Assembly (NCBI GenBank): GCA_964561145.1
Contig: CAZLNZ010000004.1
Span: forward strand, 27,047 to 91,046
Length of the DNA: 64,000 nucleotides
Direction of reading: 5' to 3'
DNA from: an uncultured Christensenellaceae bacterium
Lineage (GTDB): Bacteria; Bacillota; Clostridia; Christensenellales; CAG-1252
How positions within the stretch are numbered: position 1 is the stretch's first letter; the number at the start of each line of letters is the position of its first letter. Shown in pieces: positions 2,946 to 44,447 of this stretch. The position numbers were made by a program, and so were the translations under genes. The notes under the pieces are model-generated. The model was not told the DNA's origin. It did not search any database and saw only the letters and a program-made list of their open reading frames with translations.

Positions 2946-3446
2946 ATGGCAAAGATCAAAATGACTACCGTTCCTTTCAACGGTACACCTGAACAAGAAG
3001 CAGAACTTAGAGCAAGACTCAATGAACTTAAGCATGTTGAAGGTCCTTTAATGAAGGCTTTGCAAACTGCACAAGAGATATACGGATACCTTCCCATTGA
3101 GGTTCAAAGCATCATAGCAGAAGAAATGAACGTTTCTCTTGAAAAAGTATTTGGCGTTTCAACTTTCTATGCCCAATTTACCCTCAATCCTCGTGGTGAA
3201 ACTCAAGTAGCTGTTTGCTTGGGAACCGCTTGCTACGTAAAGGGCTCCGGGGATATTATTGAAGAATGCAAGAAGGAGCTTGGCATTCAAACTGATGAAT
3301 GCACACCCGATAGACGTTTCTCGTTAGTTGCAACACGTTGCATCGGTTGCTGCGGTTTAGCTCCTGTATTGACCATCAACGGTACCGTTTATGGCAAGAT
3401 TACATATAAGGACGTACCCAAGATTTTAGCTCCCTACAAAGCTTAA
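2946..3446 (+). CDS. NuoE/HndA-like thioredoxin-fold [2Fe-2S] ferredoxin subunit (orphan)
   Basis: Cys pattern CLGTAC ... CIGCCGLAPV is typical of NuoE/HydC-type subunits. RBS TAGGAGG. No NuoF- or hydrogenase-like partner follows. Confidence 0.8.
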   Translation: MAKIKMTTVPFNGTPEQEAELRARLNELKHVEGPLMKALQTAQEIYGYLPIEVQSIIAEEMNVSLEKVFGVSTFYAQFTLNPRGETQVAVCLGTACYVKGSGDIIEECKKELGIQTDECTPDRRFSLVATRCIGCCGLAPVLTINGTVYGKITYKDVPKILAPYKA

Positions 3447-3671: not shown

Positions 3672-3822
3672 CATTGGAACAATCGATACGCTCTTTTTAT
3701 ATGTCCTTTTTTATCCCCGTCCCAACATTTATTATAGAGCCATTATAACATAGGAACATTTGATTCGCTTTTTTATGTTTTTTATCTCCGCCCCATCATT
3801 TATTATAGAACCTATTATAATA
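3672..3822. repeat. Two tandem ~75-bp units, each ending in TTTTTATC(C/T)CCG(T/C)CCC..CATTTATTATAGA; a related motif occurs at ~3573-3600 and ~44023-44050
   Basis: Read directly: ...ggaacaatcgatacgctctttttatatgtccttttttatccccgtcccaacatttattatagagcc, followed by ...ggaacatttgattcgcttttttatgttttttatctccgccccatcatttattatagaacc. Confidence 0.7.
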
Positions 3823-3827
3823 TTATA

Positions 3828-3860
3828 CATCGTAGGGCGGGGGCTTGACTCCCGCCGCAC
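3828..3860 (+). repeat. GC-rich hairpin module CATCGTAGG-GCGGGGG...CCCGCCGC; other copies at 4173-4206, 4518-4550, 44175-44208 and a degenerate one at 44459-44493
   Basis: Read directly: catcgtagggcgggggcttgactcccgccgcac and variants. Each has a GGCGG(G)/(C)CCGCC stem. Confidence 0.6.
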
Positions 3861-4020
3861 ACATATTCTACACCATTATTACCGTATCGAAAACATGTAT
3901 GCCTCCAAGAAAATATATGTATTTTATCTAAAATGTCATACTGAGCGAAAGGTGAAATATTGGAAAATAACTTAAAAAATATTCAATAACTCAAATAAAA
4001 AAGAAATAACCTATATATAA

Positions 4021-4102
4021 TGTCATACTGAGCGGAAGAAATTGGTCTCAATTTCTGTAGTCGAACCCCAACGGGGCGATACGAAGTATCGGTATCTCAT
4101 CC
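4021..4102 (+). repeat. Three-hairpin structured element, copy 1 (candidate ncRNA/REP-like)
   Basis: TGTCATACTGAGCG, then hairpin AGAAATTG/CAATTTCT, GTAGTCGAA, hairpin CCCC/GGGG, hairpin CGATAC/GTATCG, GGTATCTCATCC. Confidence 0.6.
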
Positions 4103-4365
4103 TTGTTATTACAATATATGTTAGGCTAGGGGTTTGTTTCTTGCAAGATATTGTTATTATTATAATATGATACATCGTAGGGCGGGGGCTTGACTCTCGC
4201 CGCATCTGTTTATGAAAATCATATTTGTGAGATGCAATTTGTCATTTAGAGCAAGAAATACCAAGAACTTGTCTAAAATGTCATACTGAGCGAAAGGTGA
4301 AATATTGGAAAATAATTTAAAAAATATTCAATAACTCAAATAAAAAAGAAATAACCTATATATAA

Positions 4366-4447
4366 TGTCATACTGAGCGGAAGAAATTGGTCTCAATTTC
4401 TGTAGTCGAACCCCAACGGGGCGATACGAAGTATCGGTATCTCATCC
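4366..4447 (+). repeat. Three-hairpin structured element, copy 2 (identical to copy 1, inside the second tandem unit)
   Basis: Same sequence as 4021-4102. Confidence 0.6.
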
Positions 4448-4622
4448 TTGTTATTACAATATATGTTAGGCTAGGGGTTTGTTTCTTGCAAGATATTGTT
4501 ATTATTATAATATGATACATCGTGAGCGGATGCTTGACTCCCGCCGCATCTGTTTATGAAAATCATTTTTGTGAGATATAATTTGTCATTTAGAGTAAGA
4601 AATACCAAGAACTTGCCTAAAA

Positions 4623-4696
4623 TGTCATACTGAGCGAAAGGCGAAGCCTGGAGTCGAACCCCGGGCGGGGCGAGGTGTAACCTCGGTATCTCATCC
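4623..4696 (+). repeat. Three-hairpin structured element, copy 3 (variant stems)
   Basis: Same 5' and 3' boxes. Hairpins are replaced by AGGC/GCCT, CCCC/GGGG and CGAGGT/ACCTCG. Confidence 0.6.
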
Positions 4697-5452: not shown

Positions 5453-5558
5453 TAAAACCTCCAAAAAAATAAGGCATCTGCAAACGCTTCTTCTAAGACC
5501 TAACGAAGCGAATGCAAATGCCTTTCAACTACCCGGTGGCAGTATAATATTCATATTT
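5453..5558 (-). promoter_or_regulatory. pnuC 5' leader with a small hairpin plus a long terminator hairpin and U-run (attenuator or riboswitch candidate)
   Basis: Minus strand reads ACUGCCACCGGGUAGU, then AAGGCAUUUGCAUUCGCUUC...GAAGCGUUUGCAGAUGCCUU, then AUUUUUUU directly before the RBS. Confidence 0.5.
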
Positions 5559-5564
5559 TTCATT

Positions 5565-5593
5565 ATGATATCGTATTAAGAAAAAATTGTCAA
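5565..5593 (-). promoter_or_regulatory. Sigma-70-type promoter for pnuC
   Basis: Minus strand: TTGACA, 17 nt, TATCAT. Confidence 0.55.
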
Positions 5594-5797
5594 GTAATTT
5601 TTGCAGCTGGTATTTTAAACCATTTTGTCAATTAGGGTAAAGGATATGTCTTTTGGGAGAGTCTTTTTTTAATTTGATTGTAGTGAGAGATGATTTTCAT
5701 TCGGGAAATCTTTAAAATAATAAAAACTATTGAAATGCCGGGAGGAATAATGGTATAATATACCAAAGACTTATTAGAAAGTCTTATTAGGTGGTAT

Positions 5798-7216
5798 ATG
5801 AAAAAGATTGTAATCATTGGGTTGGGGCTTGGTGGTTTGGCATTTGTACATAATTTGCCCTATGATCCGGATTTAGATATAACTATCTATGAAAAGGAAA
5901 AATACGAGGATTTAGGGTATCCATGGTGCGACTCCGTCAGCTATGACGGAATAGCTTCTGCAGGTATTATTTTGCCTAATGATGTTTATCACCCTAAAAA
6001 ACTATTCAATATGTACTCGCCCGATATGGGCGGAAGTGTACCGCAAAGACAAAAGACGGTAGATAATGGCGTTGAACTTGATAGAAAAGCATTTCTTAGG
6101 TATATGATAGAATGTGCAAGTCATAAAGCTACCATTCATTACGGTATCGGTGTTAAGCGGTTAATTATAAAAGAGGGAGTTGTTGTTGGTTTAAAGCTAG
6201 AGAATGGTAAAAAGGTGTTTGCAGATCTTGTAATTGATGCATCCGGACCGTTAAGTCTAATTAAAAATGACGTTATTTCTCCATTGGATAAGCTAGGAGC
6301 GGATGATATTCTTTCGGGGTACAGGGCAATCTTCAAACCAAATAAAGGTGTTTTGTATCCCGATGAGGATTCTGTATATCTCAAACATTTAAACCATGTC
6401 GGAGTTTCCTGGTGCAGGACGACGCCCGATGGAAATCTAGATGTTTTTATTTCAGAAATAACCGATAAACTTAAGCTTGCTCATATAGCTTTAGCATTGA
6501 AGGATATTCGAGAGAAAAATCCCATTTTATCAGATGAGCTGATTGAAGAGCGTTTCGCTAAGCTCGTTGTAAAAAGACCCTTGTCACGTTTTGTATATGA
6601 TGGTTATGTGCTGGTCGGTGATAGTGCATACATGTCTACGCCTACATCGGGTAGCGGCATTGAGAATGCATTAAGGGCAGGACGCATTTTGGCGGAGGTG
6701 TTTTTGGATGCAAAAGGTAACACTACGGCAGATTTATGGCACTATCAAACGAGGTTTATGCGTTCGATCGGATCTAGCCTATATGCAAAGGACTTGTTTA
6801 GAAGATATGCACAGACTTTACCTGTTGAAGAGGTAAATTGGTTCTTTTCGACAATGTTTAATGGCTTTAAAGAGTTCACAGAAGCCGATTATGACAGTGT
6901 TAAGCGTATGAAAGTATATGAGTACGCCAAGAAAGCCAAAGCATTATTATCAAACAAACCGCTTTTTTCAAGCGGTACTAGAATAGCCAATCTTGCATTA
7001 AAGGCAAAGCTCCACGCTTTTATGTTGCCTGTCGAATTTGAAAAGGAAAGTTTTTTGTTGTGGCAGGAAAGGTATGCTAAAATACTAGAAGAGGGTGATG
7101 AGAACTCTTATGTCGAGCTTCTTAACGAAGAAGCTGCAGCAGATAAAGCATCAATCGGTTTTGAGGATATACAGGATAAAATACGTGAGTTAATCAAAAG
7201 AAAAAGAGGAAATTGA
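5798..7216 (+). CDS. FAD-dependent oxidoreductase (geranylgeranyl-reductase-like)
   Basis: N-terminal dinucleotide fold KIVIIGLGLGGLA and the distal motif GDSAYMSTPTSGSGIENAL. Confidence 0.6.
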   Translation: MKKIVIIGLGLGGLAFVHNLPYDPDLDITIYEKEKYEDLGYPWCDSVSYDGIASAGIILPNDVYHPKKLFNMYSPDMGGSVPQRQKTVDNGVELDRKAFLRYMIECASHKATIHYGIGVKRLIIKEGVVVGLKLENGKKVFADLVIDASGPLSLIKNDVISPLDKLGADDILSGYRAIFKPNKGVLYPDEDSVYLKHLNHVGVSWCRTTPDGNLDVFISEITDKLKLAHIALALKDIREKNPILSDELIEERFAKLVVKRPLSRFVYDGYVLVGDSAYMSTPTSGSGIENALRAGRILAEVFLDAKGNTTADLWHYQTRFMRSIGSSLYAKDLFRRYAQTLPVEEVNWFFSTMFNGFKEFTEADYDSVKRMKVYEYAKKAKALLSNKPLFSSGTRIANLALKAKLHAFMLPVEFEKESFLLWQERYAKILEEGDENSYVELLNEEAAADKASIGFEDIQDKIRELIKRKRGN

Positions 7217-7283: not shown

Positions 7284-8180
7284 ATGGCAGTTTATAAAAC
7301 CATTAAGGCAAGATGTCGTAAAAGCGGAAAATATATCGGATTACAAGTTCAAGTTGATTCCGATACAAAAGGAACCATTCTTGGCAGATATTTGATTACA
7401 AATCCGTCAACAGTTCAAAGCACAGCATATCTTCCCGATTTAGTTTCTGGGAAGCCCTGTCCTAAATGCGGAAAGAAGGGGCAAGGTTCATGTTCTTGTG
7501 GTCCTAAGGAAATGTCTTGCGGACCATCCACGAAACCTAATGAGTATTGTGCTACTTGTAAGGAGTTGGAGCTTGATTTTAATGAGCTTGATGCATCAAC
7601 TTTAAGTACCTCCGATAGAGAGTTGATCGTAAAGCAGGGCGGTGTGGTTGCACTTAGCCCCGGAATCAAAAAAGTTATGGTCGGTTTAGGTTGGGATCCT
7701 GCAAAAGTCGGAGACAGGATCGATGTTGACTCATCGGTTGTTTTAGTTAACTCTAAGAATAAGTATAATGATAATGAGTTGGTATATTTCGGAAGGTTAC
7801 AAGATAGTGCAGCAAGTGTCAATCACCACGGTGACGACTTATATGGAACCAATTCTGCGGGTGAAGATGATGAAAAGATTGACGTGGATCTTCAAAAAGT
7901 ACCCTCTAAATACGATATGATTTTCTTTGTCATCAATGTTTATTCCGGACAAACATTTAATTCTATAAGACATTTATTTATAAGGGTTGAGAATTCGGAA
8001 AACCATAAGTCGTTACTTCGTTACAATATAGCCCAAAGCAAGGCAAGCGATAAGGCAATGGTTGTTGCCAAGCTTGAGCGTTGCGGTTCAACTTGGAAGT
8101 TTACTGCAATCGGTGACAGTACAGATCATGTGAGATTGGATCCTCTTAAGGATTATTTGATATTCAATCACGTCAAGTAG
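7284..8180 (+). CDS. TerD-domain protein with an N-terminal Cys-rich (zinc-ribbon-like) module
   Basis: C-terminal ~190 aa match TerD signatures (GLGWD, IDVDSSVVL, VYFG, HHGDDLYG..GEDDEKIDVDL..VP, FVINVYS, WKFTAIG). N-terminal module carries CPKCG and CATC knuckles. RBS AAAGGAGG. Confidence 0.8.
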   Translation: MAVYKTIKARCRKSGKYIGLQVQVDSDTKGTILGRYLITNPSTVQSTAYLPDLVSGKPCPKCGKKGQGSCSCGPKEMSCGPSTKPNEYCATCKELELDFNELDASTLSTSDRELIVKQGGVVALSPGIKKVMVGLGWDPAKVGDRIDVDSSVVLVNSKNKYNDNELVYFGRLQDSAASVNHHGDDLYGTNSAGEDDEKIDVDLQKVPSKYDMIFFVINVYSGQTFNSIRHLFIRVENSENHKSLLRYNIAQSKASDKAMVVAKLERCGSTWKFTAIGDSTDHVRLDPLKDYLIFNHVK

Positions 8181-8216: not shown

Positions 8217-9275
8217 GTGAAGTTCGTAGTTGGAAAATGTAAGAAGCATGCTGTTTACAGAGTGTTTCAAGTAAATGAAAGAGGTAGTGTTGCCGATATT
8301 CTAGGTTGTTTCTCCTCTAAGGAAAAGCCTTGCGATACTAACTGTTTTTCAACAAAGCTTATTAGTAATAAGCCTTGTCCCATATGCGGTAATACCGTTC
8401 TAGGTGGTTGTAATCACTCAGCCAAGACCTGTTCGGGAAAGCTTTGCGATGGTTGTAGAACCTGCTCTGAAATAGCTATAGACAGCAGCTACTCTAGCTC
8501 TAATTCATTTTACGGTAACTATGTAGGAATGAACGATATTCCCGGTAAAAAAGATAAGTATAATAACTATCGAGGAAGTGACGGAGATCTCGGCAGAGAC
8601 GGTGCTTTTCAGGGAAAAACAGTAGTAGTTATTTGTTTGTATTCTCATGCTGCAGAGAATGCAGATACTATGAAAAAGAACATCTCTAAAGCTCTTCACG
8701 ATAAGGGCTTTAATGTGAACTTTTATTCATTAAAGGACCTTCCTGCTCCGCAAAAGCTCAAGGCTGTTCTATTGAGTGCCTGTCAATTGTGGTTGATTTC
8801 CGATTATCGTAGTCACTTAAGCAGCGAACATATAAAAGTGATAACAGACTTTTATAATTTTGGACACGGACTCTATTTATGGGGAGATAACGATCCATGG
8901 TTTAAAGATGTTAATATTATTATAAACAACCTTTTCGGCACAGAATTAAAAGGGAATTATCGAGGCGATAAGGTTATCGGTGTTCGGAAGGGAAAATTTG
9001 GCGGTGGTATAATAGCGGGTCATCCCATGAGCACAGGTATAGCAAATTTCTACGAAGGAATTTCAATATCCAGTATTATACCTCAAAAGGGGTTGAAACC
9101 ATTGGTTTATTCTTCCGATGGAAAAATTGTTTGTGCGTATTGTGATGATTATGGCAGAAGACTACTTGTAGATGGCGGTTTTACCAGATTGTATTGCAAG
9201 TGGGATTCAGCAGGCACGGACAGATATGTAAAAAATGCTGCGGTATGGCTTGCAAACGTGGAAAGGTTTAATTAA
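8217..9275 (+). CDS. Protein with the same Cys-rich N-terminal module, fused to a flavodoxin-like/GATase1-like (DUF4159/ThuA-like) domain
   Basis: N-terminus aligns with the 7284 protein (K.C.K...QV...ILG; L(V/I)S.KPCP.CG; C.TC.E(L/I)). C-terminus has an alternating beta-alpha pattern with LWLISDYRSHLSSEHIKVITDFYNFGHGLYLWGDND ... GHPM. GTG start with RBS AAGGAG. Confidence 0.55.
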   Translation: MKFVVGKCKKHAVYRVFQVNERGSVADILGCFSSKEKPCDTNCFSTKLISNKPCPICGNTVLGGCNHSAKTCSGKLCDGCRTCSEIAIDSSYSSSNSFYGNYVGMNDIPGKKDKYNNYRGSDGDLGRDGAFQGKTVVVICLYSHAAENADTMKKNISKALHDKGFNVNFYSLKDLPAPQKLKAVLLSACQLWLISDYRSHLSSEHIKVITDFYNFGHGLYLWGDNDPWFKDVNIIINNLFGTELKGNYRGDKVIGVRKGKFGGGIIAGHPMSTGIANFYEGISISSIIPQKGLKPLVYSSDGKIVCAYCDDYGRRLLVDGGFTRLYCKWDSAGTDRYVKNAAVWLANVERFN

Positions 9276-13831: not shown

Positions 13832-13922
13832 TAGAGGTATTGGTTGACAACAAAAGCTTTAATTATTAAGTCAAGATCCTCTTTGATGGGGGATTTTGAC
13901 TTTTTACAAAAATACAAGGATA

Positions 13923-16900
13923 ATGAAATTATATAAGTTAACTTTTTTCCCGTTATTTAGTAAAGATTTTAAAGATGCCTCTCTTGGTATATGGACTCAT
14001 TTAAAGGAACTTATCGAGGGCAATTCTTCTTGCGGACTTGTTGATTGGAATGGTGGTTCAAGGAACGCAATTTGTCTTGTTGCTTCAGGGTTAACGCAAA
14101 AGGAAATTTCTTCTCTCGTCTTGGGATACATTGCGGAAACCGATGATAAAAACCAATTCGGTATTACAGTCAAAGCGGAAATACTTAGCAAGGAAGACAT
14201 TGAAAAACTTAAGGCGGAAAACGAACGCTACGTAAATGACGAGCGTATCAATTCTTGTCTCGAGGAAACCGATGTTAATAGTATTGAAAAGCTCGATACT
14301 ACGGAAACCTTAGCTTCCTATAGTGATTCTGACAAGTCGGAGGATAAGGCACCTGATGAAAACAAAGAGTCTACCGATTCGACTAATGATAATAATATGT
14401 CGGTTGAGCCTTCTTCGATTGGTACCAATAAGCCGCTCCATGGTTTCAGTATGAGTGGTAAAGCCTCATTGAAGAAAAATGAAGAGGATAACGTAGAGCA
14501 AAATCCTCCAAAGCCTGAAACTCTGTCCGAGCTTATTAAGACGATTGTCGATTTGAAGAACTATCTATTAACAAATGTTAAGGGACAAAGACATGCAATC
14601 GATGTTTTTACTCAAGGAATATTTGAAACGGAAGCTTTTACCTCTCATAATTCGAAAAGAAAGGGTGTCGAAGCACTGTTTTTGTTTGCCGGACCTTCCG
14701 GTGTCGGTAAAACCTATTTGGCTGAGTTAAGTAAAGACGTTTTGGCAAGACCCTTCTTAAGAGTTGATATGAGCGAATTTAGTGATAATCTCGCAAATAT
14801 GAATTTCAACGGAGAGCATGGCAGCAAGAATATGGTAACGGGTTTTGTTAATAAGAATCCTAAGTCGATTATACTTTTCGATGAGATCGAAAAGGCACAT
14901 ATTAATACCATATATTTGTTCTTGCAACTTCTCGATGCGGGGCGGTTGTTTGACTATAAACTCAACAAGGAAATATCTTTTAAGGACGTTATCGTTATTA
15001 TTACAACAAATGTCGGAAAGAGCTTATATGAAGATCCAACCAGATTCGATTTGTCTACAATTCCTTCGAGTACTGTCCTTGATGCACTCTCAAAGGAGGT
15101 CAATCCTCAGAATAACTCTGAAGCCTTCCCCAAGTGTATAGTAACAAGAATGGCAAACGGAAACGTCATTCTTTTCAATCACTTGGAGCCATATGCGCTT
15201 CGTTCTATAATTGAAAGAGAGATAGCAACACAATTTGAGATATTTGAAAAAGCTTACGGAGTTACTATTGAGTATAATCCGGAACACTTGAGTGCTTTAG
15301 TTCTATATAAAGGTGGTGGTTTCTCTGACGCAAGGACCTTAAGGGGTATGGCTAGAGGAATGGTTAGTAAAGAGCTGCACGATGTAATCAATCAAGTTTT
15401 TGTCAAAAAGGGCAACATTACAGATATCAGAAAGATTAAGTTTATCGTTGAGCCGATGAAGTTTGATGAAGAGATTAAGAGCTTATTCTCTGTTACTAAG
15501 AAGTTGCGTGTTTTGGTTTTTGCTGCCGAGGAGGACGAGTCGGTCATTAGAGAAGGAGCCCCTGACAATATCGAACTTGTTTTTGCACAAGACTTAAATG
15601 ACCTTAAGAAGAAGATCAGAGGGGTTTCGGATTATGTTCTTCTCGATGTCTGCAGAGGCTATGTAAAAGGTGCAAGAATTCCTTCGGATATAGAGGATTT
15701 AGAAACCGAAGGAACTGAAGCATTCCATTATATCCAAGAGTTTTATCCCGAGATTCCCATTGAGCTTCTCAATACAAGGAATGGAAGCGAGGATACCTTC
15801 GCAACACTATTAGGTAAGGGTGCAAGAGGTGTTATCAAGCTGAGAAAGGGAAGAGCCTTTAGACGTGATTTGGAAGAGCTCACTTTTGCAGCCTTGGTTA
15901 ACAACGGAACTTTTGAATTAGCAAGGGCAGGAAAGGTGTTATCCTATAACTGTGCTCAATATGTTTCAAAAAATACAGTTACCATTTCCTTTAATCGTTT
16001 AAAACTGATTCCCGCTCCCAGTGCGGAGGATTCTCAGCATATAAGAAAGAGCGGACAGGATATCACTTTCAAGGATGTATCCGGTTGTAGTGAGGCAAAG
16101 AAGACCTTGATGGAATTTGCAGGGTATCTTGATAATCCTCGTGAAATGGCAATGAAGGGAAAGAGAATGCCAAAGGGCGTATTGCTTTACGGACCTCCGG
16201 GAACGGGCAAAACCTTACTTGCAAAAGCAATGGCAAACGAGTGCAAGGCGACATTTATTCCAACAACGGCGACAGCATTTTTTAATCCATATGTCGGTGT
16301 AAGTGAGCAGAACGTTAGGGATGTTTTCCAAAGAGCAAGAAGATATGCTCCGTCAATAGTTTTTATTGACGAGGTAGATGCAATCGGAAGGAACAGAACA
16401 GGAGCATCAAATTCTTCTCATGTGGAGTCTGTGTTGAATGCGTTTATTGCAGAAATGGACGGATTTATCGTAGATGAGAAGCGTCCTGTATTTATTCTTG
16501 CCGCAACCAACTATGAGATTAACGGACCGGGCGAACGAGTTTTAGATAAAGCTTTCGTAAGAAGATTTGACAGAGCGATTTTTGTAGATCTTCCCAATGA
16601 AGAAGAGAGGGCGGAACTCTTGTCGAAGAAACTTGCAAAACATGGTATAGTAGGTTTTGATAATGCATTGAAGAGCCTTGCGGAAAGGTCGGGCGGAATG
16701 AGTTGCGCCGAACTTGAGATGATGATAGAGTTCGCTTTAAGAATGGCGGGTGATAATGAACTTAATGAACAAATGTTGATTGAATCACTGGATGCCTACC
16801 GTTACGGAGAAGAGAAGGAGTTTGAGCCGGATAATCTTCGTCAAACGGCTTGTCACGAAGCAGGTCATGCATTGTTGAATTGGTTGTCGGGTGATATACC

Positions 16901-17354
16901 CACCTATCTAACGATAGTGTCGAGAGGTAATTTTGGCGGCTATATGCAAAGAGCAGAAGATAAGAGAGGCACTTTATCACGTAAGGACATATTGTCAAGA
17001 CTACGTTGTTCATTAGCGGGTAGAGGCGCAGAATGTGTTGTTTACGGAGATGGTGGAATAAACACCGGGGCTTCTTCGGATTTAGAGCATGCCAGATTCT
17101 ATATTGACTTGTATTTTAGAGATTTTGCGATGGGTGACAATCTATATGCGAAAACAGAAGATGCCGATTTAGAGAAAGCAATCAAAGCCGAATACGATAA
17201 CACCTTGCGTCTAATCGAGGCTAATCTAGACGTTCTCAACGAATTAACCGATTGTCTTGTTGAAGAGAAGTGCATGGATGAAAAACGTTTGAGTGAATTC
17301 TTCGGAAGTAAAACACCGATCCTTCCGGAGCTTATAGACATTCAGACAATATAA
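13923..17354 (+). CDS. Soluble multidomain AAA+ protease: N-terminal domain, acidic linker, ClpB-D2-like AAA+, receiver-like domain, FtsH-like AAA+, M41 metalloprotease
   Basis: First ATPase: GPSGVGKT, IILFDEIEKAH, ITTN. Second ATPase: GPPGTGKTLLAKA, IVFIDEVDA, pore-loop YVG. Protease: HEAGHAL and GASSDLEHA. No TM segments. I prefer the ATG at 13923 (AGGA upstream) over the TTG at 13896. Confidence 0.85.
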   Translation: MKLYKLTFFPLFSKDFKDASLGIWTHLKELIEGNSSCGLVDWNGGSRNAICLVASGLTQKEISSLVLGYIAETDDKNQFGITVKAEILSKEDIEKLKAENERYVNDERINSCLEETDVNSIEKLDTTETLASYSDSDKSEDKAPDENKESTDSTNDNNMSVEPSSIGTNKPLHGFSMSGKASLKKNEEDNVEQNPPKPETLSELIKTIVDLKNYLLTNVKGQRHAIDVFTQGIFETEAFTSHNSKRKGVEALFLFAGPSGVGKTYLAELSKDVLARPFLRVDMSEFSDNLANMNFNGEHGSKNMVTGFVNKNPKSIILFDEIEKAHINTIYLFLQLLDAGRLFDYKLNKEISFKDVIVIITTNVGKSLYEDPTRFDLSTIPSSTVLDALSKEVNPQNNSEAFPKCIVTRMANGNVILFNHLEPYALRSIIEREIATQFEIFEKAYGVTIEYNPEHLSALVLYKGGGFSDARTLRGMARGMVSKELHDVINQVFVKKGNITDIRKIKFIVEPMKFDEEIKSLFSVTKKLRVLVFAAEEDESVIREGAPDNIELVFAQDLNDLKKKIRGVSDYVLLDVCRGYVKGARIPSDIEDLETEGTEAFHYIQEFYPEIPIELLNTRNGSEDTFATLLGKGARGVIKLRKGRAFRRDLEELTFAALVNNGTFELARAGKVLSYNCAQYVSKNTVTISFNRLKLIPAPSAEDSQHIRKSGQDITFKDVSGCSEAKKTLMEFAGYLDNPREMAMKGKRMPKGVLLYGPPGTGKTLLAKAMANECKATFIPTTATAFFNPYVGVSEQNVRDVFQRARRYAPSIVFIDEVDAIGRNRTGASNSSHVESVLNAFIAEMDGFIVDEKRPVFILAATNYEINGPGERVLDKAFVRRFDRAIFVDLPNEEERAELLSKKLAKHGIVGFDNALKSLAERSGGMSCAELEMMIEFALRMAGDNELNEQMLIESLDAYRYGEEKEFEPDNLRQTACHEAGHALLNWLSGDIPTYLTIVSRGNFGGYMQRAEDKRGTLSRKDILSRLRCSLAGRGAECVVYGDGGINTGASSDLEHARFYIDLYFRDFAMGDNLYAKTEDADLEKAIKAEYDNTLRLIEANLDVLNELTDCLVEEKCMDEKRLSEFFGSKTPILPELIDIQTI

Positions 17355-34524: not shown

Positions 34525-34606
34525 AGTCATACTGAGCGGAAGAAATTGGTACCAATTTCTGTAGTCGAACCCTGAAAGGGTGATGTGCAACATCGGTATC
34601 TCGTCA
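34525..34606 (+). repeat. Three-hairpin structured element, copy 4
   Basis: AGTCATACTGAGCG box. Hairpins AGAAATTGG/CCAATTTCT, CCCT/AGGG and GATGT/ACATC. 3' box GGTATCTCGTC. Confidence 0.6.
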
Positions 34607-34864
34607 TTTTTTATACCTACGGATACAAATATTCTTGAACTTTTGCATTTATCGATGCTGAATCCATTTTCTGTGGTGTTTCGATCCCAAAAAAACTAAT
34701 TATTTTTAATGTAAAGGTTGATATATTCACTATTTTATTCTATAATTAAAATATCGTAAATGATCAATAATGCCATCGTCTGTCTTCTCGGGTGAAAATC
34801 ATTATGGCATTACTTCGTGCTTCATATACAATAGAGAACCTTATATGGGAAAAGGAGTCAATTG

Positions 34865-37800
34865 GTGAACGTGAAAAAGGCATTGGGTTTTGTAGGGTTG
34901 ATAATTATACTGCTGGCTATTCTGTCGGTTTCTTTGATTTTTGTTGGTTGTAATAGTGATGTTTTAGTTACGGTTCATACAGATCAGTTCGGCGATATTG
35001 CGTGGAATGCATCAAAAGAATCTTTTGATTCCTTTATTATTACCCTAGGAAAAGTTGAGAATTTCAGACCGATATATTATTTTGATTCAGATTATTCAGT
35101 TAGAGCTGATGTTAATGTATTAACTGCAGATAAGCTTAAAAAGGCAGATTGCAAAGATGTTTATATAAAGTGGGTTATTTGTGAACATACAAGTGCACAG
35201 AATATGAGCAACGGTGTTGATGCAACCTGCTCTACAGAGGGAAAAGCCCCCGATTACCTATGTCCTACATGCGGACATGTTGAGATAGGGGAAAGTATAC
35301 CCTGTATTCCGCATACTTATATTGAATATAAATACCGTGCTGCAAGCTGTACCGAAGATGGTCAGATGGCTCATAAAGAATGTACGATTTGCCATTATCT
35401 TACCGATGGGCAAAAGCAATTAAACGTTGATGATATAATAATTGAAAAGCTCCCCCACATAGAAAGTGACTGGATTGTAGATTATGATTCAACTTGTACA
35501 AAAATAGGAAATAAGCACAAAGAATGTACAATTTGTAATTTTATTATTAAAAATGAAGTTATTCTCGCTAAGGATCATGATTTAATACTTCATTCTGCTA
35601 AAGGAGCCACATGCACTGAGATTGGTTGGAATGAATATGACAATTGTTCCAGATGCAGTTATACGACTTATGTTGAAATATCTGCAAAAGGACACAATAC
35701 CCTTCGTCACGAAGGAAAACATGCTACATGCGATTCTGACGGCTATGAGTCATACGATTATTGTGTAAATCCGGGGTGTGTATATTCTACAAAGGTCGTA
35801 ATTCCCGCACTTGGGCATGATACTATTAATCACGAGGCACAAGAAGCTACTTGTTTGAGTATTGGCTGGAATAAGTATGAAACTTGCTCACGGTGTAGCT
35901 ACACAACATATCAAGAGATAGCAGCCTTCGGGCACGAGATGATTCACCATGATGCTAAGAAGGAAACTTGCACGGAGATTGGCTGGGAAGAATATGATGG
36001 TTGTACTAGATGTGATTATAAGATAGGCTACAATGAAATACAGCCTCATCATACTATTGTTGAAGTTTCTGCAAGGTTCCCTACTTGTATCGATCCGGGA
36101 TATAACGTATATGAGAAATGCACTGAGTGTGATTATTCTACGCTAGTTATTATTGCCGCTCTCGGTCACGATGATGGTGTGTGGGTAACCGATATCCAAC
36201 CTACTTGTACCGATGTCGGAAGTGAAGATAGAAAGTGTACTCGTTGTCAGCATATCTTAGAAACAAGAGAAGTTAATGCCTTAGGTCATGACGTGATATA
36301 CCACAAAGCACAGGATGCGACTTGTCTTGAGATCGGCTGGTATGAATACGATACATGTTCAAGGTGTAATTATACGACCTATGTTGTAATTCCCGCATTA
36401 GAACATGATCTCGTATACGTTGATAAAAAGGAGCCTAAATGCTACGAGCCTGGGCATAATGCCTTTGAGTATTGCAACCGTTGTAGTTATACAACGTATG
36501 AGGAATTAACTATAGATCACTCTATAATCCACCACGAGGGCAAAAGTGCAACTTGTTTAGATAAAGGTTGGTATGATTATGATACTTGCTCAAGAGTGGA
36601 TTGTAAGTATTCGACCTATGTCGAAATCCCTGCGATTGGTCACGATAACGGAAAGTGGATAGTAGACTATGATCCCACTTGCACGGAAAAGGGCTCTAAA
36701 CATAAAATATGCACAAGGTGTGAGTCTCCTCTGGAACACGCATTTATTGATTCTCTAGGTCACGAGATTGTACACCATGCAGCACAAAATGCCACTTGCA
36801 TAGACATTGGTTGGTACGCATATGATACCTGCTCAAGGTGTGATTATAGTACATACGAGGAAATAGGTGCCCTAGGTCATGATGATGGAGTTTGGGCAAC
36901 TGAAATTCAACCTACTTGTATAGAAAATGGAAGAGAAGCTCGAAAGTGTGTCCGCTGTCAGTATGTCTTAGAAACAAGAGAAGTTAATGCCTTAGGTCAT
37001 GATACGATACACCACACAGCTCAAGATGCTACTTGTTTAGAAGTTGGTTGGTACGCATATGATACTTGCTCAAGGTGTGATTATAGTACATACGAGGAAA
37101 TAAGTGCCATGGGGCACAATGATGGAGTGTGGGTAACCAAAATTCAACCTACGTGTACGCGAAATGGAAGCGAGGTTAGAAAGTGTACCCGCTGTCAATA
37201 TATAATAGAAACTAGAAAAATAGACGCCTTAGGTCACGACACTATCCACCATGCAGCACAAGATGCTACTTGCCTTGAGGTTGGTTGGTATGAATACGAT
37301 ACCTGTTCAAGATGTAATTATAGTACATACGAGGAAATAGATGCCTTGGGTCATAGCTATGTAGATTGCATATGCACTAGATGTTCCTTGGAAAACCATA
37401 TTAACAGTGGTGAATTATGCCGTCATGATAAATATATCTATTTCGGCACATATCCTCAGAGCGAAGTTAAAGACTCCTCTTTAATTGCGGTTTTAACATC
37501 ACAAGCAGGAGTTCTCCCTACAGAAAATAATTCAGCTAATTGGACAAGCTACGGTTATTACATAGAGGGGAAAATAAGCAACTATATGTGGTATATTGAT
37601 ATATCCTATAGTAGTGAAACCTATAGAGGTGTGTATTTTACATCTTATCGTCCGGAAAAGACAAACTATTCAAGTTCCTCTGATTATAGCTATCAGGATG
37701 ACAATGGGTATTTAGTATCCACAGTCTATTGGTTTAGGTATGAGCCTATCAAGTGGAGAGTCTTGAGCGAGTCAAACGGAGAAGCCTTGGTTCTTTCTGA

Positions 37801-40800
37801 AATGATCATTGATTCTCGTGACTATTATGATAATGATAAAGATCGTACTATAGACGGAGCAACAGTGTATGCAAATAACTATGCTTACAGTAATATACGA
37901 GCATTTTTGAATAATACCTTCTACAACGTAGCTTTTTCATCACTTCAAAAGGAATTGATATTGTTAACTGACATTGATAATAGTGCTAGAAGTTCATATG
38001 AAATTGAACCTGGCTTTGAAAATGATAGTGAATGTGTCAATAGCTATGCATGTAACAACACTTCAGACCATGTATTCTTTTTAAGTACATTTGAGGTATC
38101 AAATCCAGATTACGGATTTGGTGGTGAAGAAGATATCGATTTGATTAGAGCTGCTACTGATTATGCACAGTGTCAAGGTGCTCATATAACGGAAAATGAC
38201 GAAGAGTACTTTTCCGGTTGGTGGTGGCTACGTTCACCTGCAAATTACAAGTATGACGGTGCAAGGGGTGTTAATTATTGTGGTAGTCGGTCTTACTGCT
38301 ACTATCTATATAGTGCTGATGTGGGTGTTGTTCCGGCTTTGCGAATTCATCTTACAGACTGTATTGAGAATGGGCATGAACCTAATGAGAAATGTATTTG
38401 TACAAAGTGCGGAGATACGGTACATGACCTTATACGCCACGAAGCAAAAGGTGCAACTTGCCTTGACGTTGGTTGGTATGAGTACGATACCTGTTCAAGA
38501 TGTAATTATAGTACATATCAAGAAATTGCGGCACTAGGACATGATTATGTAGACTGCATATGTGCTAGGTGTTCATTGGAAACTCATATTAACGATGGGA
38601 AATTCTGCCGCCATGATGATTATATTTACTTTGGTTTATATCCACAAAGTGAAGTAACTGATGAGAACTTAACAAGCGTATTAACCGCTCAAGCAGGTGC
38701 CTTACCCACAGAAAATAACCCAGCTAATTGGACAAGTTATGGTTATTACATAGAGAACGAGATTACCGATTTTATGTGGTACATTGACTTAACCTATGGT
38801 TGTGAAACCTACAGAGGTGTATATTTTACATCATACCGTCCTTCTTATCATTCAGTTTCAAGTATTGAGACTAACAGTTATCAGGATGAAAACGGTTATA
38901 GTTTATCAACAGTGTATTGGTTTAAATATGAACCTGTTAAGTGGAGAATATTAAATGAGAATAACGGAGTTGCGTTAATTCTTTGTGAATTAATAATTGA
39001 CAGCCAAGCTTTTTATGATAATTTGAGTGGTAGAACTATAGACGGTAGTACGGTATACGCAAACAACTATGCATATAGTAGTATTCGCACCTTCTTAAAC
39101 GATACTTTCTACAACACATCATTTACAGCACTTCAGAAAGAATTGATATTATTGACAGAGGTGGATAATACTGCAAGGGGCACTAACCTTGATACTAATA
39201 GTTCCTATTGGAATAGTGGCAAAAATACGTATGCTTGTGGAAATACAAACGATTATTTATTCCTGTTAAGCAGTAGAGAAATGACGACCAAGGCAAATGG
39301 ATTTATTGCAACTACCGGAGTTTCCACTACCAGACAAAAGAAAATGACAGACTACGCCCTATCACAAGGATTAGCTGTAAGTACAGAGAGCTCTTATATT
39401 GGTTGTGCCAATTGGTTGATCCGTTCTCCCGATTTTGATAGTGGTGCGAAGATTCGTTTTGTTCAATATAGCGGACACGATTACTATAACGATCTTGCAG
39501 CAACGGACTATACTGCGTGTGGTATAGTCCCTGCATTAAGAATAAAACTATCTGATTCCTTCGGTATTGAGCATACTACAAATTCTAACTGTGTTTGTGC
39601 CGCGTGCGGAACTGTATTGCATTGCTTGATTTATCATTCTGCCAAGGCAGCCACCTGTACCGAGATTGGTTGGAACGAGTATATGACTTGTACACGTTGT
39701 AGCTATACAACTTATAAGGAAATTCCCGCGTTAGACCATGATTATATTATCCATGCGGCTGTTTCTCCAACCTGCACCGAAATTGGTTGGAAAGAGTTTG
39801 CTACCTGTTCTCGATGTAATTATTCAACATATCAAGAGCTATCCCCTTTAGGCGGAAAGCATTTATACGAGCTAGGTATTTGTAGTAAGTGCGGTGTAAA
39901 CGCTTACACTCGAGATGGTGATTATATCTACTTCGGAACATATCCTCAAAGCGAAGTGACTGATACCACACTTACAACATTTCTTACTTCATCAGCAGGA
40001 AGTTTGCCAACAGCTAGCAATTCCGCTAATTGGACAAGTTATAAGTATTACATTTCCACAAACGTTAAGGATTACATGTGGTATATTGACTTGAACCACA
40101 ATGGTGACCAATACAGGGGAGTGTACTTTACCTCTTACCGTCCATATTGGACAATGGGTACCAGTTCTTTAGCTAATAGCTATCAGGATGACAATGGCTA
40201 CAGTATATCCACAGTGTATTGGTTTAAGTACGAGCCTATTAAATGGCGTATTCTTTCCGAGAGTGATGGAATAGCACTAATGCTTTGCGAAATGATAATA
40301 GATAGTCAAGAGTATTATCATACTACCAGCAATCGTACAATCGATGGTTCTACAATATATGCTAACAACTATGCGTATAGTAATATTCGCACCTTCTTGA
40401 ATGAAAATTTTTATAATACCGCCTTTAGTTCATTACAAAAGGAATTAATATTATTTACGAAAATCGATAATAGTGAAAGAAGTACAAATCCGGATAATAA
40501 CCCGTCAGAATGGAATGGTGGTACAAATAAGTATGCGTGTTCTAACACTAATGATCATATATTCCTACTGAGCGAGCAAGAGGTTACAACTGAGGCATAT
40601 GGCTTTAGTGCGGATTATAGTGCGGCTGATATCCAAAGACAAAAGAAAACCACGGCTTATGCTAGGTGCCAAGGGGCACTTACGAATGCATCGAGCGGTT
40701 ATGAACAAAATGGCTGGTGGTGGCTACGTTTCCCATATTACGATAGCAACTATAACGCACGTCGTACTAACTATTACGGTTACGCAGGTATTGGCAGTAA

Positions 40801-42154
40801 TGTTCATGACAATAGTAACGGAATAGTTCCCGCTTTACGTATTAGGCTAAGTGACTGCATTGATAATGGACACACGTTAGATTCCAATTGTGTTTGTACG
40901 AAGTGTGGTGATACTGTTCATACTCTCACTTATCACTCGGCACAAGCGGTTAGTTGTACCGAAATAGGCTGGAATGAATACGAGACATGCTCTCGTTGTA
41001 ACTATTCAACATACCAAGAAATCCCTGCATTGGATCATGATTGTATCACACATGAAGCCCTAGCTGTTACATGCACCGAAATAGGTTGGAATGAATATCA
41101 AACATGCACCAGGTGCGATTACTCAACCTATCTAGAGATTCCGGCATTAGGTGGCGAGCATTTGTATGAACAAGGTACTTGTAGTAAATGCGGTGTGAAA
41201 GTATATACTCGAGATGGTGATTATATCTATTTTGGCACATATCCTCAAAGCGAAGTGATCGACACTGAGTTTGTCTCAATTCTTACCTCACAATCGGGAA
41301 GTTTACCTACAGCTGGTAATTCCGCTAATTGGACAAGCTATAAGTATTACATTTCCTCTAGTGTTAAGGATTTTATGTGGTATATCGATTTAAAATATGA
41401 AGGAGAGTATTATAGGGGTGTGTACTTCACATCTTATCGTCCGACTCAGACCAGTAAATCGAGTTCTACGGGTAATAGTTTTCAAGATGATAACGGATAT
41501 AAGATATCCACTATCTATTGGTTTAAGCATGAGCCGATTCAATGGCGTATATTAAGTGAGAGCAATGGCGAGGCATTAATCCTTTGTGAAATGGTGATTG
41601 ACAGTCAAGAGTATTATATTAGTACTAGCAATCGAACAATAAATGGCTCAACTGTTTATTCTAATAACTATGCTCATAGTAGTATTCGTGCCTTCTTGAA
41701 TGATACTTTCTATAACACAGCATTTAGTTCATTGCAAAAAGAGTTAATACTATTAACGGAAGTTGATAATAGCGTGAGAAGTACGAATCCTGACAGTAAT
41801 GCAACACAATGGAATAGTGGCACAAATAAAAATGCTTGTTCAAATACCAATGATTATGTATTTCTGTTAAGCGAGCAAGAGGTAACAACGCCAGCATATG
41901 GTTTCAGTGCAGATCACAGCAATGCAGATAGTGTAAGGCAGAAAATACCCACCAATTATGCTAAAATACAAGGTGTATCAGTAAGTACTGCAAGTGGAAC
42001 ACAAGGTAATGTATATTGGTGGTTGCGTTCTCCATACTATGCAAATAACACTGATATTCTTGGGATTAGTATTGATGGTAATACTTATGGTGATTATTAT
42101 GTTAACTACATCAACCTTGGTACTGTTCCCGCTTTGAGAATTAAACTTGAATAG
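34865..42154 (+). CDS. Giant (~2430 aa) surface lipoprotein with about two dozen ~40-aa Cys/His repeats and four DUF6273-like modules
   Basis: Signal peptide plus lipobox (LIFVGC). Repeat GH-x4-H-x5-TC-x3-G-x5-C-x-RC-x-Y. Four modules read YIYFGTYPQSEV...YWFKYEPIKWRIL...WWLRSP...GVVPALRI. RBS AAGGAG with GTG at 34865 or TTG at 34862. Confidence 0.85.
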   Translation: MNVKKALGFVGLIIILLAILSVSLIFVGCNSDVLVTVHTDQFGDIAWNASKESFDSFIITLGKVENFRPIYYFDSDYSVRADVNVLTADKLKKADCKDVYIKWVICEHTSAQNMSNGVDATCSTEGKAPDYLCPTCGHVEIGESIPCIPHTYIEYKYRAASCTEDGQMAHKECTICHYLTDGQKQLNVDDIIIEKLPHIESDWIVDYDSTCTKIGNKHKECTICNFIIKNEVILAKDHDLILHSAKGATCTEIGWNEYDNCSRCSYTTYVEISAKGHNTLRHEGKHATCDSDGYESYDYCVNPGCVYSTKVVIPALGHDTINHEAQEATCLSIGWNKYETCSRCSYTTYQEIAAFGHEMIHHDAKKETCTEIGWEEYDGCTRCDYKIGYNEIQPHHTIVEVSARFPTCIDPGYNVYEKCTECDYSTLVIIAALGHDDGVWVTDIQPTCTDVGSEDRKCTRCQHILETREVNALGHDVIYHKAQDATCLEIGWYEYDTCSRCNYTTYVVIPALEHDLVYVDKKEPKCYEPGHNAFEYCNRCSYTTYEELTIDHSIIHHEGKSATCLDKGWYDYDTCSRVDCKYSTYVEIPAIGHDNGKWIVDYDPTCTEKGSKHKICTRCESPLEHAFIDSLGHEIVHHAAQNATCIDIGWYAYDTCSRCDYSTYEEIGALGHDDGVWATEIQPTCIENGREARKCVRCQYVLETREVNALGHDTIHHTAQDATCLEVGWYAYDTCSRCDYSTYEEISAMGHNDGVWVTKIQPTCTRNGSEVRKCTRCQYIIETRKIDALGHDTIHHAAQDATCLEVGWYEYDTCSRCNYSTYEEIDALGHSYVDCICTRCSLENHINSGELCRHDKYIYFGTYPQSEVKDSSLIAVLTSQAGVLPTENNSANWTSYGYYIEGKISNYMWYIDISYSSETYRGVYFTSYRPEKTNYSSSSDYSYQDDNGYLVSTVYWFRYEPIKWRVLSESNGEALVLSEMIIDSRDYYDNDKDRTIDGATVYANNYAYSNIRAFLNNTFYNVAFSSLQKELILLTDIDNSARSSYEIEPGFENDSECVNSYACNNTSDHVFFLSTFEVSNPDYGFGGEEDIDLIRAATDYAQCQGAHITENDEEYFSGWWWLRSPANYKYDGARGVNYCGSRSYCYYLYSADVGVVPALRIHLTDCIENGHEPNEKCICTKCGDTVHDLIRHEAKGATCLDVGWYEYDTCSRCNYSTYQEIAALGHDYVDCICARCSLETHINDGKFCRHDDYIYFGLYPQSEVTDENLTSVLTAQAGALPTENNPANWTSYGYYIENEITDFMWYIDLTYGCETYRGVYFTSYRPSYHSVSSIETNSYQDENGYSLSTVYWFKYEPVKWRILNENNGVALILCELIIDSQAFYDNLSGRTIDGSTVYANNYAYSSIRTFLNDTFYNTSFTALQKELILLTEVDNTARGTNLDTNSSYWNSGKNTYACGNTNDYLFLLSSREMTTKANGFIATTGVSTTRQKKMTDYALSQGLAVSTESSYIGCANWLIRSPDFDSGAKIRFVQYSGHDYYNDLAATDYTACGIVPALRIKLSDSFGIEHTTNSNCVCAACGTVLHCLIYHSAKAATCTEIGWNEYMTCTRCSYTTYKEIPALDHDYIIHAAVSPTCTEIGWKEFATCSRCNYSTYQELSPLGGKHLYELGICSKCGVNAYTRDGDYIYFGTYPQSEVTDTTLTTFLTSSAGSLPTASNSANWTSYKYYISTNVKDYMWYIDLNHNGDQYRGVYFTSYRPYWTMGTSSLANSYQDDNGYSISTVYWFKYEPIKWRILSESDGIALMLCEMIIDSQEYYHTTSNRTIDGSTIYANNYAYSNIRTFLNENFYNTAFSSLQKELILFTKIDNSERSTNPDNNPSEWNGGTNKYACSNTNDHIFLLSEQEVTTEAYGFSADYSAADIQRQKKTTAYARCQGALTNASSGYEQNGWWWLRFPYYDSNYNARRTNYYGYAGIGSNVHDNSNGIVPALRIRLSDCIDNGHTLDSNCVCTKCGDTVHTLTYHSAQAVSCTEIGWNEYETCSRCNYSTYQEIPALDHDCITHEALAVTCTEIGWNEYQTCTRCDYSTYLEIPALGGEHLYEQGTCSKCGVKVYTRDGDYIYFGTYPQSEVIDTEFVSILTSQSGSLPTAGNSANWTSYKYYISSSVKDFMWYIDLKYEGEYYRGVYFTSYRPTQTSKSSSTGNSFQDDNGYKISTIYWFKHEPIQWRILSESNGEALILCEMVIDSQEYYISTSNRTINGSTVYSNNYAHSSIRAFLNDTFYNTAFSSLQKELILLTEVDNSVRSTNPDSNATQWNSGTNKNACSNTNDYVFLLSEQEVTTPAYGFSADHSNADSVRQKIPTNYAKIQGVSVSTASGTQGNVYWWLRSPYYANNTDILGISIDGNTYGDYYVNYINLGTVPALRIKLE
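37240..42151 (+). repeat. Four tandem ~1.2-1.3 kb intragenic DNA modules inside the giant gene
   Basis: The YIYFG(T/L)YPQSEV-coding sequence recurs at ~37430, 38617, 39916 and 41216. The PALRI-coding sequence recurs at ~38340, 39535, 40835 and 42135. Confidence 0.85.
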
Positions 42155-44376: not shown

Positions 44377-44447
44377 TTCGTACTGAACGAAGGCAACGAC
44401 GTAGTCATAATCCGAAGGAGCGATACTACGGTATCGGTATTTCATCC
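44377..44447 (+). repeat. Three-hairpin structured element, copy 5 (most diverged)
   Basis: TTCGTACTGAACG box, GTAGTC, hairpins TCC/GGA and CGATAC/GTATCG, 3' box GGTATTTCATCC. The first hairpin is not evident. Confidence 0.45.

Follow-up and report, generated by a model that had tools for sequence, protein, structure and literature searches.

Short intergenic repeats with three covarying hairpins on one strand of an uncultured Christensenellaceae genome

Introduction

What is the short element that recurs on one strand of an uncultured Christensenellaceae genome? In the 64,000-nucleotide stretch of DNA analysed here (the window), a non-coding element of about 82 nt is found in several copies, each built of short hairpins, three in most copies, that stand between the conserved single-stranded boxes TCATACTGAGCGRAAG, GKAGTCGAA, and GGTATCTCATCC. 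A first-pass annotation, made from the sequence alone, had left it as either a structured RNA or a mobile or REP-like element. I performed a computational analysis of its copies, pairing, folding, surroundings, turnover, and distribution.

Results

Copies and layout of the element

The general layout of the element is a 5′ box, (T)GTCATACTGAGCG, followed by the hairpin H1, the linker GTAGTCGAA, the hairpin H2 directly adjoining the hairpin H3, and the 3′ box. From the invariant columns, the scan pattern TACTGARCG-N(6-36)-GKAGTC-N(18-40)-TCGGTATYTC was derived. It was found that the pattern matches the 64-kb window at five positions, 4026, 4371, 4628, 34530, and 44381, all on the + strand, while it gave no match in 100 shuffles of the sequence. 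A covariance model (R1), with the four distinct copies as input, was run on both strands of the window with the filters off. The same five copies were recovered at 71-102 bits, the next best score being 15.9 bits (Table 1). A weak R1 match at 5567-5623 was rejected as a copy.

The five same-strand sites listed in the first-pass annotation were thus all recovered by the pattern, and all are on the + strand. However, the copies at 4021 and 4366 are identical because both lie inside a 345-bp tandem duplication, so that the number of independent full copies is four, not five. The list had also missed two truncated copies at 3935 and 4280, which consist of the 5′ box plus about 13 nt (the box, AAAGG, and then unrelated AT-rich DNA). 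Each tandem unit contains a truncated 5′ box, 65 nt of AT-rich DNA, a type A copy, and a GTAG-tagged hairpin repeat, and the unit boundaries fall within the shared type-B 5′ box of the truncated copies. The boxes and stems quoted in that annotation are present in the sequence as it stated, apart from two corrections. Its central GTAGTCGAA is not invariant, since the box reads GKAGTC and continues with GAAC, except in the 44377 copy, where ATAA follows. Of the three stems that it assigned to all copies, H2 and H3 do occur throughout, but the 44377 copy lacks H1. This copy is the most diverged one, with 62-67% identity to the other copies.

Table 1. Positions and layout of the full and truncated copies and of the tandem duplication in the window
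Feature	Positions	Strand	H1	H2	H3	Boxes, linker, scores, and remarks
Full copy, type A	4021..4102	+	AGAAATTG/CAATTTCT	CCCC/GGGG	CGATAC-GAA-GTATCG	5′ box TGTCATACTGAGCG; linker GTAGTCGAA; 3′ box GTATCTCATCC; R1 102.4 bits, pattern match
Full copy, repeat of 4021-4102	4366..4447	+				100% identity to 4021-4102; unit 2 of the 345-bp tandem duplication
Full copy, type B	4623..4696	+	short, AGGC-GAA-GCCT (includes GCGAAGC)	CCCC/GGGG	CGAGGT-GTA-ACCTCG	R1 87.3 bits, pattern match
Full copy	34525..34606	+		CCCT/AGGG	(T)GATGT-GCA-ACATC(G)	two T-G wobbles; 5′ half near-identical to type A; R1 99.3 bits
Degenerate copy	44377..44447	+	absent	TCC-GAA-GGA	CGATAC-TACG-GTATCG	altered boxes TCGTACTGAACG and GTATTTCATCC; R1 71.3 bits
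Truncated copy	3935..3955	+				type-B 5′ box GTCATACTGAGCGAAAGG, then unrelated AT-rich DNA; partial R1 match, 14 bits
Truncated copy	4280..4300	+				duplicate of 3935-3955 inside the tandem array
Tandem duplication, 345 bp	3927..4645	+				2.1 units, 96% identity

Covariation of the stems

Are the three hairpins real? A pairing test was performed with 22 proposed pairs (H1, H2, H3, and a putative 4-bp closing stem) in the four distinct sequences. It was revealed that 98.7% of the pair cells are paired and that eight pairs are changed on both sides. None of 500 column shuffles matched the observed pairing, double-change counts, or covariation score. When the 3′ partners were slid by 1-3 columns, 40-53% of the cells were paired, with at most one double change. 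Across the copies, H3 varies among CGATAC/GTATCG, CGAGGT/ACCTCG, and GATGT/ACATC, and H2 among CCCC/GGGG, CCCT/AGGG, and TCC/GGA, while H1 is a stem of either 8-9 bp or 4 bp where it is present. The compensatory stem changes seen in the first-pass annotation therefore hold against the controls, and so does its view that the copies are not passively drifting duplicated DNA, since the stems are kept by paired changes. Thus, the three hairpins are strongly supported by covariation. The stems are either under constraint or corrected arm to arm, and the linkers are conserved.

In addition, a 4-bp closing stem, TGAG/CTCA, is newly and tentatively proposed. It is based on one paired change (G-C to A-T, resulting in TGAA/TTCA in the 44377 copy) and one T-G wobble, and it has to compete with an equally conserved ATAC/GTAT pairing; for these reasons it is called tentative. 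Both of the informative wobble cells are T-G on the + strand, which indicates that the + strand is the folding strand. The T-G pair of the 34.5 kb copy had been read as a wobble that is tolerated only if the + strand is transcribed. It does not show transcription and marks the + strand as the folding strand only, since G-T is also tolerated in single-stranded DNA. Conserved single-stranded linkers between covarying stems are, in general, also a hallmark of functional RNA.

Folding with DNA and RNA parameters

Does the element fold better as DNA or as RNA? When DNA parameters were used, three of the four distinct copies had precisely the three hairpins as their minimum-energy fold (z = -2.7, -2.3, and -0.4), the 4021 copy being the one with z = -2.7. 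With RNA parameters, neither strand of the copies showed unusual stability (z = -0.2 to -1.2). The three-hairpin fold then lies 3.5-6.5 kcal/mol above the optimum and is the optimum in no copy, and the RNA-parameter optimum disrupts H3.

Among the 13 loops seen, seven are GNA triloops. GCGAAGC is present in H1 of the 4623 copy, and CCGAAGG in H2 of the 44377 copy. Mini-hairpin DNAs of the GCGAAGC and CCGAAGG types are reported to be extraordinarily stable and to occur at the single-stranded DNA initiation sites of phage G4 and at ssiA of RSF1010 (PMC13037366). The GC skew is positive on the + strand over the whole window, and the majority of the window genes are on the + strand. Thus, the + strand should be the leading-strand sequence, and the parental + strand the lagging-strand template. 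Taken together, the fold energies, the mini-hairpins, and the skew point to a single-stranded DNA form; they lean towards it and do not prove it.

Genomic context

The copies are all intergenic and, as the first-pass annotation had it, co-oriented, all being on the + strand. The chance of four independent copies being on one strand is 1 in 8. With the bias in gene strand, the co-orientation of the copies fits an RNA explanation equally well.

The 4 kb locus has a NuoE-like gene on one side and the 3′ end of a convergent pnuC-like gene on the other. The 34525 copy lies 254 nt after addA and 256 nt before the gene for a 2,430-aa DUF6273 repeat protein, and the 44377 copy lies in the spacer between the divergent genes for a Zn-ribbon membrane protein and DUF1846. 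Well-formed promoters of the downstream genes are located 3′ of these two copies: TTGATA-17-TATAAT at 34719 for the 34525 copy, and an extended -10, TGTTATAAT, at about 44570 for the 44377 copy. Thus, if these promoters are used, the element is outside the leaders of those genes.

A consensus scan at the copies gave no consistent + strand sigma-70 promoter and no intrinsic terminator. A -10-like hexamer (TATAAT, TAAAAT, or TATAAA; TAWAAW) ends 1-2 nt 5′ of the 5′ box in five of six copies, and no usable -35 was seen beside it. A T-rich tail follows each copy.

In both the 4 kb and the 44 kb spacer, I found two further short repeat types beside the element, which share its strand and keep the same order. 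The first, about 75 nt in length, is a GC-rich hairpin unit with a GTAG tag, and the second has the motif TTTATCYCC...CATTTATT. The element and its two companion repeats form a BIME-like mosaic. A larger common unit of the two spacers was considered and rejected, since only the three short repeat types are shared and the DNA between them is unrelated.

Turnover between close relatives

Is the element conserved at orthologous sites? In a ~90% relative (L035), the genes for the Zn-ribbon protein and DUF1846 are also adjacent and are orthologous to those of the window. The spacer between them measures 290 nt, versus 654 nt in the window, and has neither the element nor the companion repeats. The homology of L035 to the window restarts at GTCTAAAACGTA, 66 nt 3′ of the element. 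A GTAGG..GGCGG match at the end of the L035 sequence resembles the beginning of a coding sequence (an FAD-binding GGG.AG motif, translated by eye) and was not taken as a repeat.

In a ~95% relative, the contigs from five runs all start inside a copy of the element at the same DUF1846 site. This copy has a canonical 3′ box and the H3 GAGGT-GCA-ACCTC, while the promoter-proximal 100 nt beside it are about 91% identical to the window. Such a different H3 beside a ~91% identical flank indicates that the copy at the DUF1846 site was exchanged, or else changed far more rapidly than the DNA beside it. A further copy of the ~95% relative follows the NuoE-like gene, where the flanking DNA bears no relation to that of the window.

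Within the window, the 34525 and 4021 copies differ at 3 of the first 50 columns and at 13 of the last 39 columns (p = 0.0015). This uneven difference between the halves shows that the copies are chimeric. Logan contigs of the window strain end inside the 34525 copy (L009), inside the 4623 copy (L010), and at the truncated copy. Since the contigs break at copy-specific 30-mers, further near-identical copies elsewhere in the genome are implied.

In a 75% relative, addA and the DUF1846 gene are 144 nt apart, and thus the 10.3 kb between them in the window are lineage-specific. This segment, which carries the giant DUF6273 gene and the Zn-ribbon gene, is bracketed by two co-oriented copies of the element. 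It is not a simple cassette, because the pair of Zn-ribbon and DUF1846 genes occurs without elements in L035. No terminal inverted repeat or target-site duplication was found at the copies, and no clean pair of filled and empty sites with exact ends was found among the compared relatives.

Distribution

How widely is the element distributed? An Rfam search of the whole window at the gathering thresholds gave no match. At E <= 10 or E <= 1, the three loci gave chance-level matches only, none of which covers a whole copy. ARAGORN found no tRNA or tmRNA gene in the window, and the loops of the element are 3-4 nt in length. The search against known RNA families called for at the first pass was thus carried out, and its statement that no known family was recognised stands with both programs.

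The strict pattern had no true match in 185,579 GTDB species genomes (one each); a single match in a Desulfomonile MAG had none of the hairpins on reading and was taken as chance. Two patterns gave no match in the JGI metagenomes, and the matches of three patterns in IMG/VR score at most 18 bits with R1, none being real. With the 0.9-kb repeat region as the query, blastn gave no match among plasmids and phages. A spurious 60-aa reverse-strand ORF across a copy, used as a query against protein databases, gave no candidate for miscalled copies.

The nearest DUF1846 homologues outside the window's own 90% identity cluster are 75% identical, and the named matches, with about 55% identity, come from Clostridia such as Oscillospiraceae. 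The relatives with 75% DUF1846 identity have no copy in about 55 kb of sequence, and 12 kb of the ~90% relative have no copy either. For comparison, the density in the window is five copies per 64 kb, versus none in these ~67 kb from relatives. Thus, the family is confined to its lineage and corresponds to no known RNA or repeat family.

Discussion

Between the two natures offered at the first pass, the evidence tends towards the repeat or mobile element. The element behaves as a small, fast-changing genomic repeat, not as a conserved RNA gene. I tentatively favour, as the best explanation, a new lineage-restricted family of small non-coding, non-autonomous structured interspersed repeats that would work as folded single-stranded DNA with a trans-acting enzyme of the HUH type. 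A repeat is favoured over a housekeeping RNA because the lineage is narrow, the element is multi-copy, recombining, and present or absent at orthologous sites, and it has neither an associated gene class nor transcription signals.

The functional form of such a repeat would be the folded + strand. As the lagging-strand template, the + strand would be transiently single-stranded in each replication, and the hairpins, many of them C-GAA-G or GNA mini-hairpins, would then display the conserved boxes to a trans-acting protein whose gene lies elsewhere in the genome. The likeliest partner would be a single-strand-specific transposase or nuclease (HUH/Y1-type), as for REP/RAYT and the ends of IS200/IS605. 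It may copy or move the element, and recombination between copies may shuffle the hairpin modules. The upkeep of the stems would reflect the needs of the partner protein or arm-to-arm correction in palindromes, not an RNA function. The partner enzyme and the movement are purely what I infer; no transposase, integrase, or reverse transcriptase domain was found in the scanned ORFs of at least 100 aa in the 64-kb window.

Could the element be a structured RNA instead? It might be a multi-copy small RNA gene or a cis-acting module in transcripts, such as a stabiliser, a processing site, or a self-cleaving motif, and I regard this main rival as possible but rather unlikely. The linkers may be an active or binding core, and the three stems may form a cloverleaf-like four-way junction with the TGAG/CTCA closing stem. 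Covarying stems with invariant single-stranded junctions would suit this, and so would the paired closing-stem change in the 44377 copy, the U-G wobbles on the + strand, the orientation that the copies share with most genes, and the T-rich tail behind each copy. The -10-like hexamer in five of six copies would set a transcription start at about ACUGAG, so that the closing stem would pair the two ends of the RNA. However, no Rfam family matches even at E <= 10, no copy has a usable -35 or an intrinsic terminator, and the RNA-parameter z values are only -0.2 to -1.2, the covarying fold never being the RNA optimum. Furthermore, the element is absent or exchanged at orthologous sites while the adjoining promoter DNA is conserved. 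It is linked to no gene class, the 4 kb locus has no + strand gene after it, and H1 is wholly lost from one copy. Two narrower RNA readings were rejected. A hammerhead-like CUGAGCG is present, while the core would need CUGANGA, and no ribozyme model matched. The reverse complement contains GGTTCGA, while no arm of a tRNA-derived structure pairs correctly.

It is improbable, in my estimate, that the copies serve as recombination sites that depend on structure, like integron attC or single-strand att sites, for the insertion, excision, or exchange of DNA segments, with the crossover in the conserved 5′ box. Two co-oriented copies do flank the 10.3 kb absent between addA and DUF1846 of a relative, the 345-bp tandem units start and stop in the 5′ box, and the DNA after the NuoE-like gene is unrelated in two strains that each have a copy there. 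Structure is also kept more than sequence, and the orientation is single, as in attC arrays. But no integrase was found in the window, the bracketing copies are only 62% identical, and there is no core of the R′/R′′ type (GTTRRRY). The adjacency of the Zn-ribbon and DUF1846 genes without the element in the closer relative means that the "cassette" is not a single unit, and unequal crossing-over is a simpler account of the tandem array. Less credible still is ordinary duplicated intergenic DNA with fortuitous hairpins and no structure-dependent role. Although two of the five copies are a tandem duplicate and the covariation rests on only four sequences, the eight both-side changes and 98.7% pairing against about 45% in the slid controls speak against it. 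So do the distance of 30-40 kb between copies with unrelated flanks and the further copies that other strains have in different flanks.

A doubtful but wider option is that the element is the recognition module of an undescribed system, with ACUGAGCG, GUAGUCGAA, and GGUAUCUCA as the active core. Such a system would be either a new class of single-stranded DNA mobile or recombination element in Clostridia or a new small RNA, catalytic or protein-binding, that propagates as a repeat. In the DNA case, a trans-acting enzyme may read the three-hairpin, four-way-junction fold, not inverted repeats.

Which known elements does the favoured structured repeat resemble? GTAG- or CGTC-tagged REP elements and BIMEs with their RAYT transposases are, like the element, small, extragenic, multi-copy, and species-restricted, and they keep their pairing while the sequence varies (PMC3733652). 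Three of the four distinct copies carry an unpaired GTAG in their central linker. The element also forms mosaics with other short repeats, among them a GTAG-tagged GC-rich hairpin, and handling as single-stranded DNA is proposed for both. In contrast, a REP is a single imperfect palindrome of 20-40 bp with the tag directly at one end, while the element has three different hairpins in 82 nt, and its GTAG is 5 nt from H2 and replaced by GGAG in the 4623 copy. The five copies and two fragments are all direct, without the inverted pairs of a BIME or REPIN. No RAYT (Y1 transposase) gene was found among the window ORFs. The text of the REP survey does not mention Firmicutes or clostridia (PMC3733652).

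Unlike a MITE, the element has a 5′ end, TGTCATACTGAGCG, that does not match the reverse complement of its 3′ end, GGATGAGATACCGA, and its flanks are without direct duplication. The ends of the IS200/IS605 family have no terminal inverted repeat or target duplication; they have similar sub-terminal hairpins at both ends in one strand, recognised by one TnpA, and insertion is strand-specific, 3′ of a fixed short target, with the active strand on the lagging-strand template. The element resembles these ends and the ORF-less PATEs in that it has no terminal inverted repeat or target-site duplication and would depend on sub-terminal hairpins of one strand. A 5′ flank of TAWAAWG is observed in five of six copies, and all copies of the window are on the G-rich strand, so that the strand bias would fit the lagging-strand template, although this comes from four independent copies and no empty-site pair. 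On the other hand, the twin hairpins of IS200/IS605 have no counterpart, since H1 (AGAAATTG.. or AGGC..) and H3 (CGATAC.., CGAGGT.., or GATGT..) are unrelated within every copy. The element is only 82 nt in length, has a third hairpin, and has no TnpA or TnpB nearby, and no pair of excision and insertion was observed.

Integron attC sites and CALINs share with the element the priority of structure over sequence, the folded single strand, the uniform orientation, and the location at borders of variable DNA. The element differs in having neither a single long imperfect hairpin with R and L boxes nor a GTTRRRY core, and its copies are dispersed, not arrayed as cassettes, in a window without an integrase domain. 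BOX (A-B-C) and RUP of pneumococci and ERIC of enterobacteria are short, intergenic, multi-copy, modular units that can fold. They are longer than the element and are either MITEs with terminal inverted repeats or long imperfect palindromes. Their variable module content recalls the short or missing H1 of some copies. No sequence relation was found, Rfam, which is not known to model these DNA repeats, giving no match. The element differs from them in being built of three independent mini-hairpins with conserved single-stranded linkers.

Finally, single-stranded DNA initiation signals, such as the G4-type three-hairpin origin and RSF1010 ssiA (PMC13037366), also consist of several short hairpins of one strand with GCGAAGC or CCGAAGG cores. 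Like them, the element is orientation-specific and is found on the strand that becomes single-stranded in replication. However, those signals each occur once, as parts of phage or plasmid origins, are about 40-140 nt in length, and are recognised by primase (PMC13037366), while nothing in this analysis ties the element to a replicon or to priming. Thus, the element lacks the defining features of REPs, MITEs, IS200/IS605 ends, attC sites, and every Rfam family, and it shares the logic of a strand-specific folded site with REPs, PATEs, and attC.

Good descriptions of REP, BIME, BOX, and PATE elements are available from Proteobacteria and from a few pathogenic Firmicutes, but hardly from the uncultured gut and environmental Clostridia that dominate metagenomes. 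The build of the element is unusual: its three mini-hairpins are unlike each other, its single-stranded linkers are conserved, it has one orientation, and inverted repeats are absent. Should a partner enzyme or a transcript come to light, the element would define a new type of substrate for single-stranded DNA transposition or recombination, or a new RNA motif. Even without a partner or a transcript, the element, which marks hypervariable spacers and breaks short-read assemblies, is useful for tracing rearrangements at the strain level and is known to cause contig breaks in this lineage.

Repeat mosaic in the intergenic spacers

When its copies were aligned, a second repeat family was found to consist of CATYGTAGG, followed by a GC-rich hairpin (GGCGGG..CCCGCC) and then by GCAC..ATATTCTACRCC. 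The family is a REP-like unit with a GTAG tag and a length of about 75 nt. In a pattern scan, its YCGCCGCAY motif gave four matches against 0.6 expected. The GTAG-tagged repeat always adjoins the three-hairpin element, an intergenic repeat of about 82 nt, and always shares its strand. I also found a third short repeat, TTTATCYCC-N-CATTTATT(ATAGA), which was matched three times by the pattern scan against zero expected; an additional degenerate copy lies near position 3563. In the 4 kb and 44 kb spacers alike, this third repeat is found on the upstream side of the GTAG-tagged one. Jointly, the three repeat types make up a BIME-like mosaic whose order is fixed.

The 4 kb spacer begins after a stand-alone NuoE-like 2Fe-2S gene, which has neither a hydrogenase nor a NuoF partner and is followed by a terminator. 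Beyond this terminator, the DNA is completely different between the loci of two strains (L001 and L002), though the encoded protein is identical. The spacer downstream of the NuoE-like gene is hypervariable. The leader region of the pnuC-like (NMN-transporter) gene contains a long, nested inverted repeat (AAGGCATCTGCAAACGCTTC ... GAAGCGAATGCAAATGCCTT). This inverted repeat, for which no Rfam match was found at the gathering threshold, could be a terminator or else a hairpin of leader or riboswitch-like type.

Features of the repeat-rich spacers and their neighbourhood
Feature	Position	Strand	Remark
NuoE-like gene	2946-3446	+
Third short repeat	3710-3733, 3781-3804, 44022-44044	+
GTAG-tagged hairpin repeat	3829-3900, 4174-4210, 4519-4555, 44179-44250, 44459-44490	+
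Nested inverted repeat	5465-5530		upstream of pnuC-like gene, - strand
Flavin-dependent (halogenase-like) enzyme	5798-7216
TerD protein	7284-8180	+	Cys-rich, Zn-ribbon-like N-terminus
TerD-neighbouring protein	8217-9275	+	Cys-rich, Zn-ribbon-like N-terminus
AAA+/M41 protein	13896-17354	+	1,152 aa; two AAA+ modules, partial M41 (FtsH-type) peptidase domain
DUF6273 protein	34862-42154	+	2,430 aa; Cys-rich repeat units
Zn-ribbon membrane protein	42379-43956	-
Zn-ribbon membrane protein, L035	4705-6090	-

Protein-coding genes around the spacers

The TerD protein, so called for its TerD domain, and its neighbour, the latter lacking any Pfam match, adjoin the halogenase-like enzyme, and the three may form an accessory stress or defence cluster near the repeat-rich spacer. 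The architecture of the AAA+/M41 protein is unusual among FtsH relatives.

The DUF6273 protein contains four DUF6273 domains and many Cys-rich units of about 79 residues each, which recur in the DNA with a period of 237 nt in at least 12 copies. The 10.3-kb segment carrying its gene is missing between addA and DUF1846 in a relative whose DUF1846 is 75% identical. The Zn-ribbon membrane protein has an overall identity of 37% with its counterpart in L035, a contig of a roughly 90% relative. Residues 1-60 are nearly identical between the relatives, and the middle is strongly diverged and gap-rich; from this alignment, the middle looks like a fast-evolving region, either surface-exposed or a linker.
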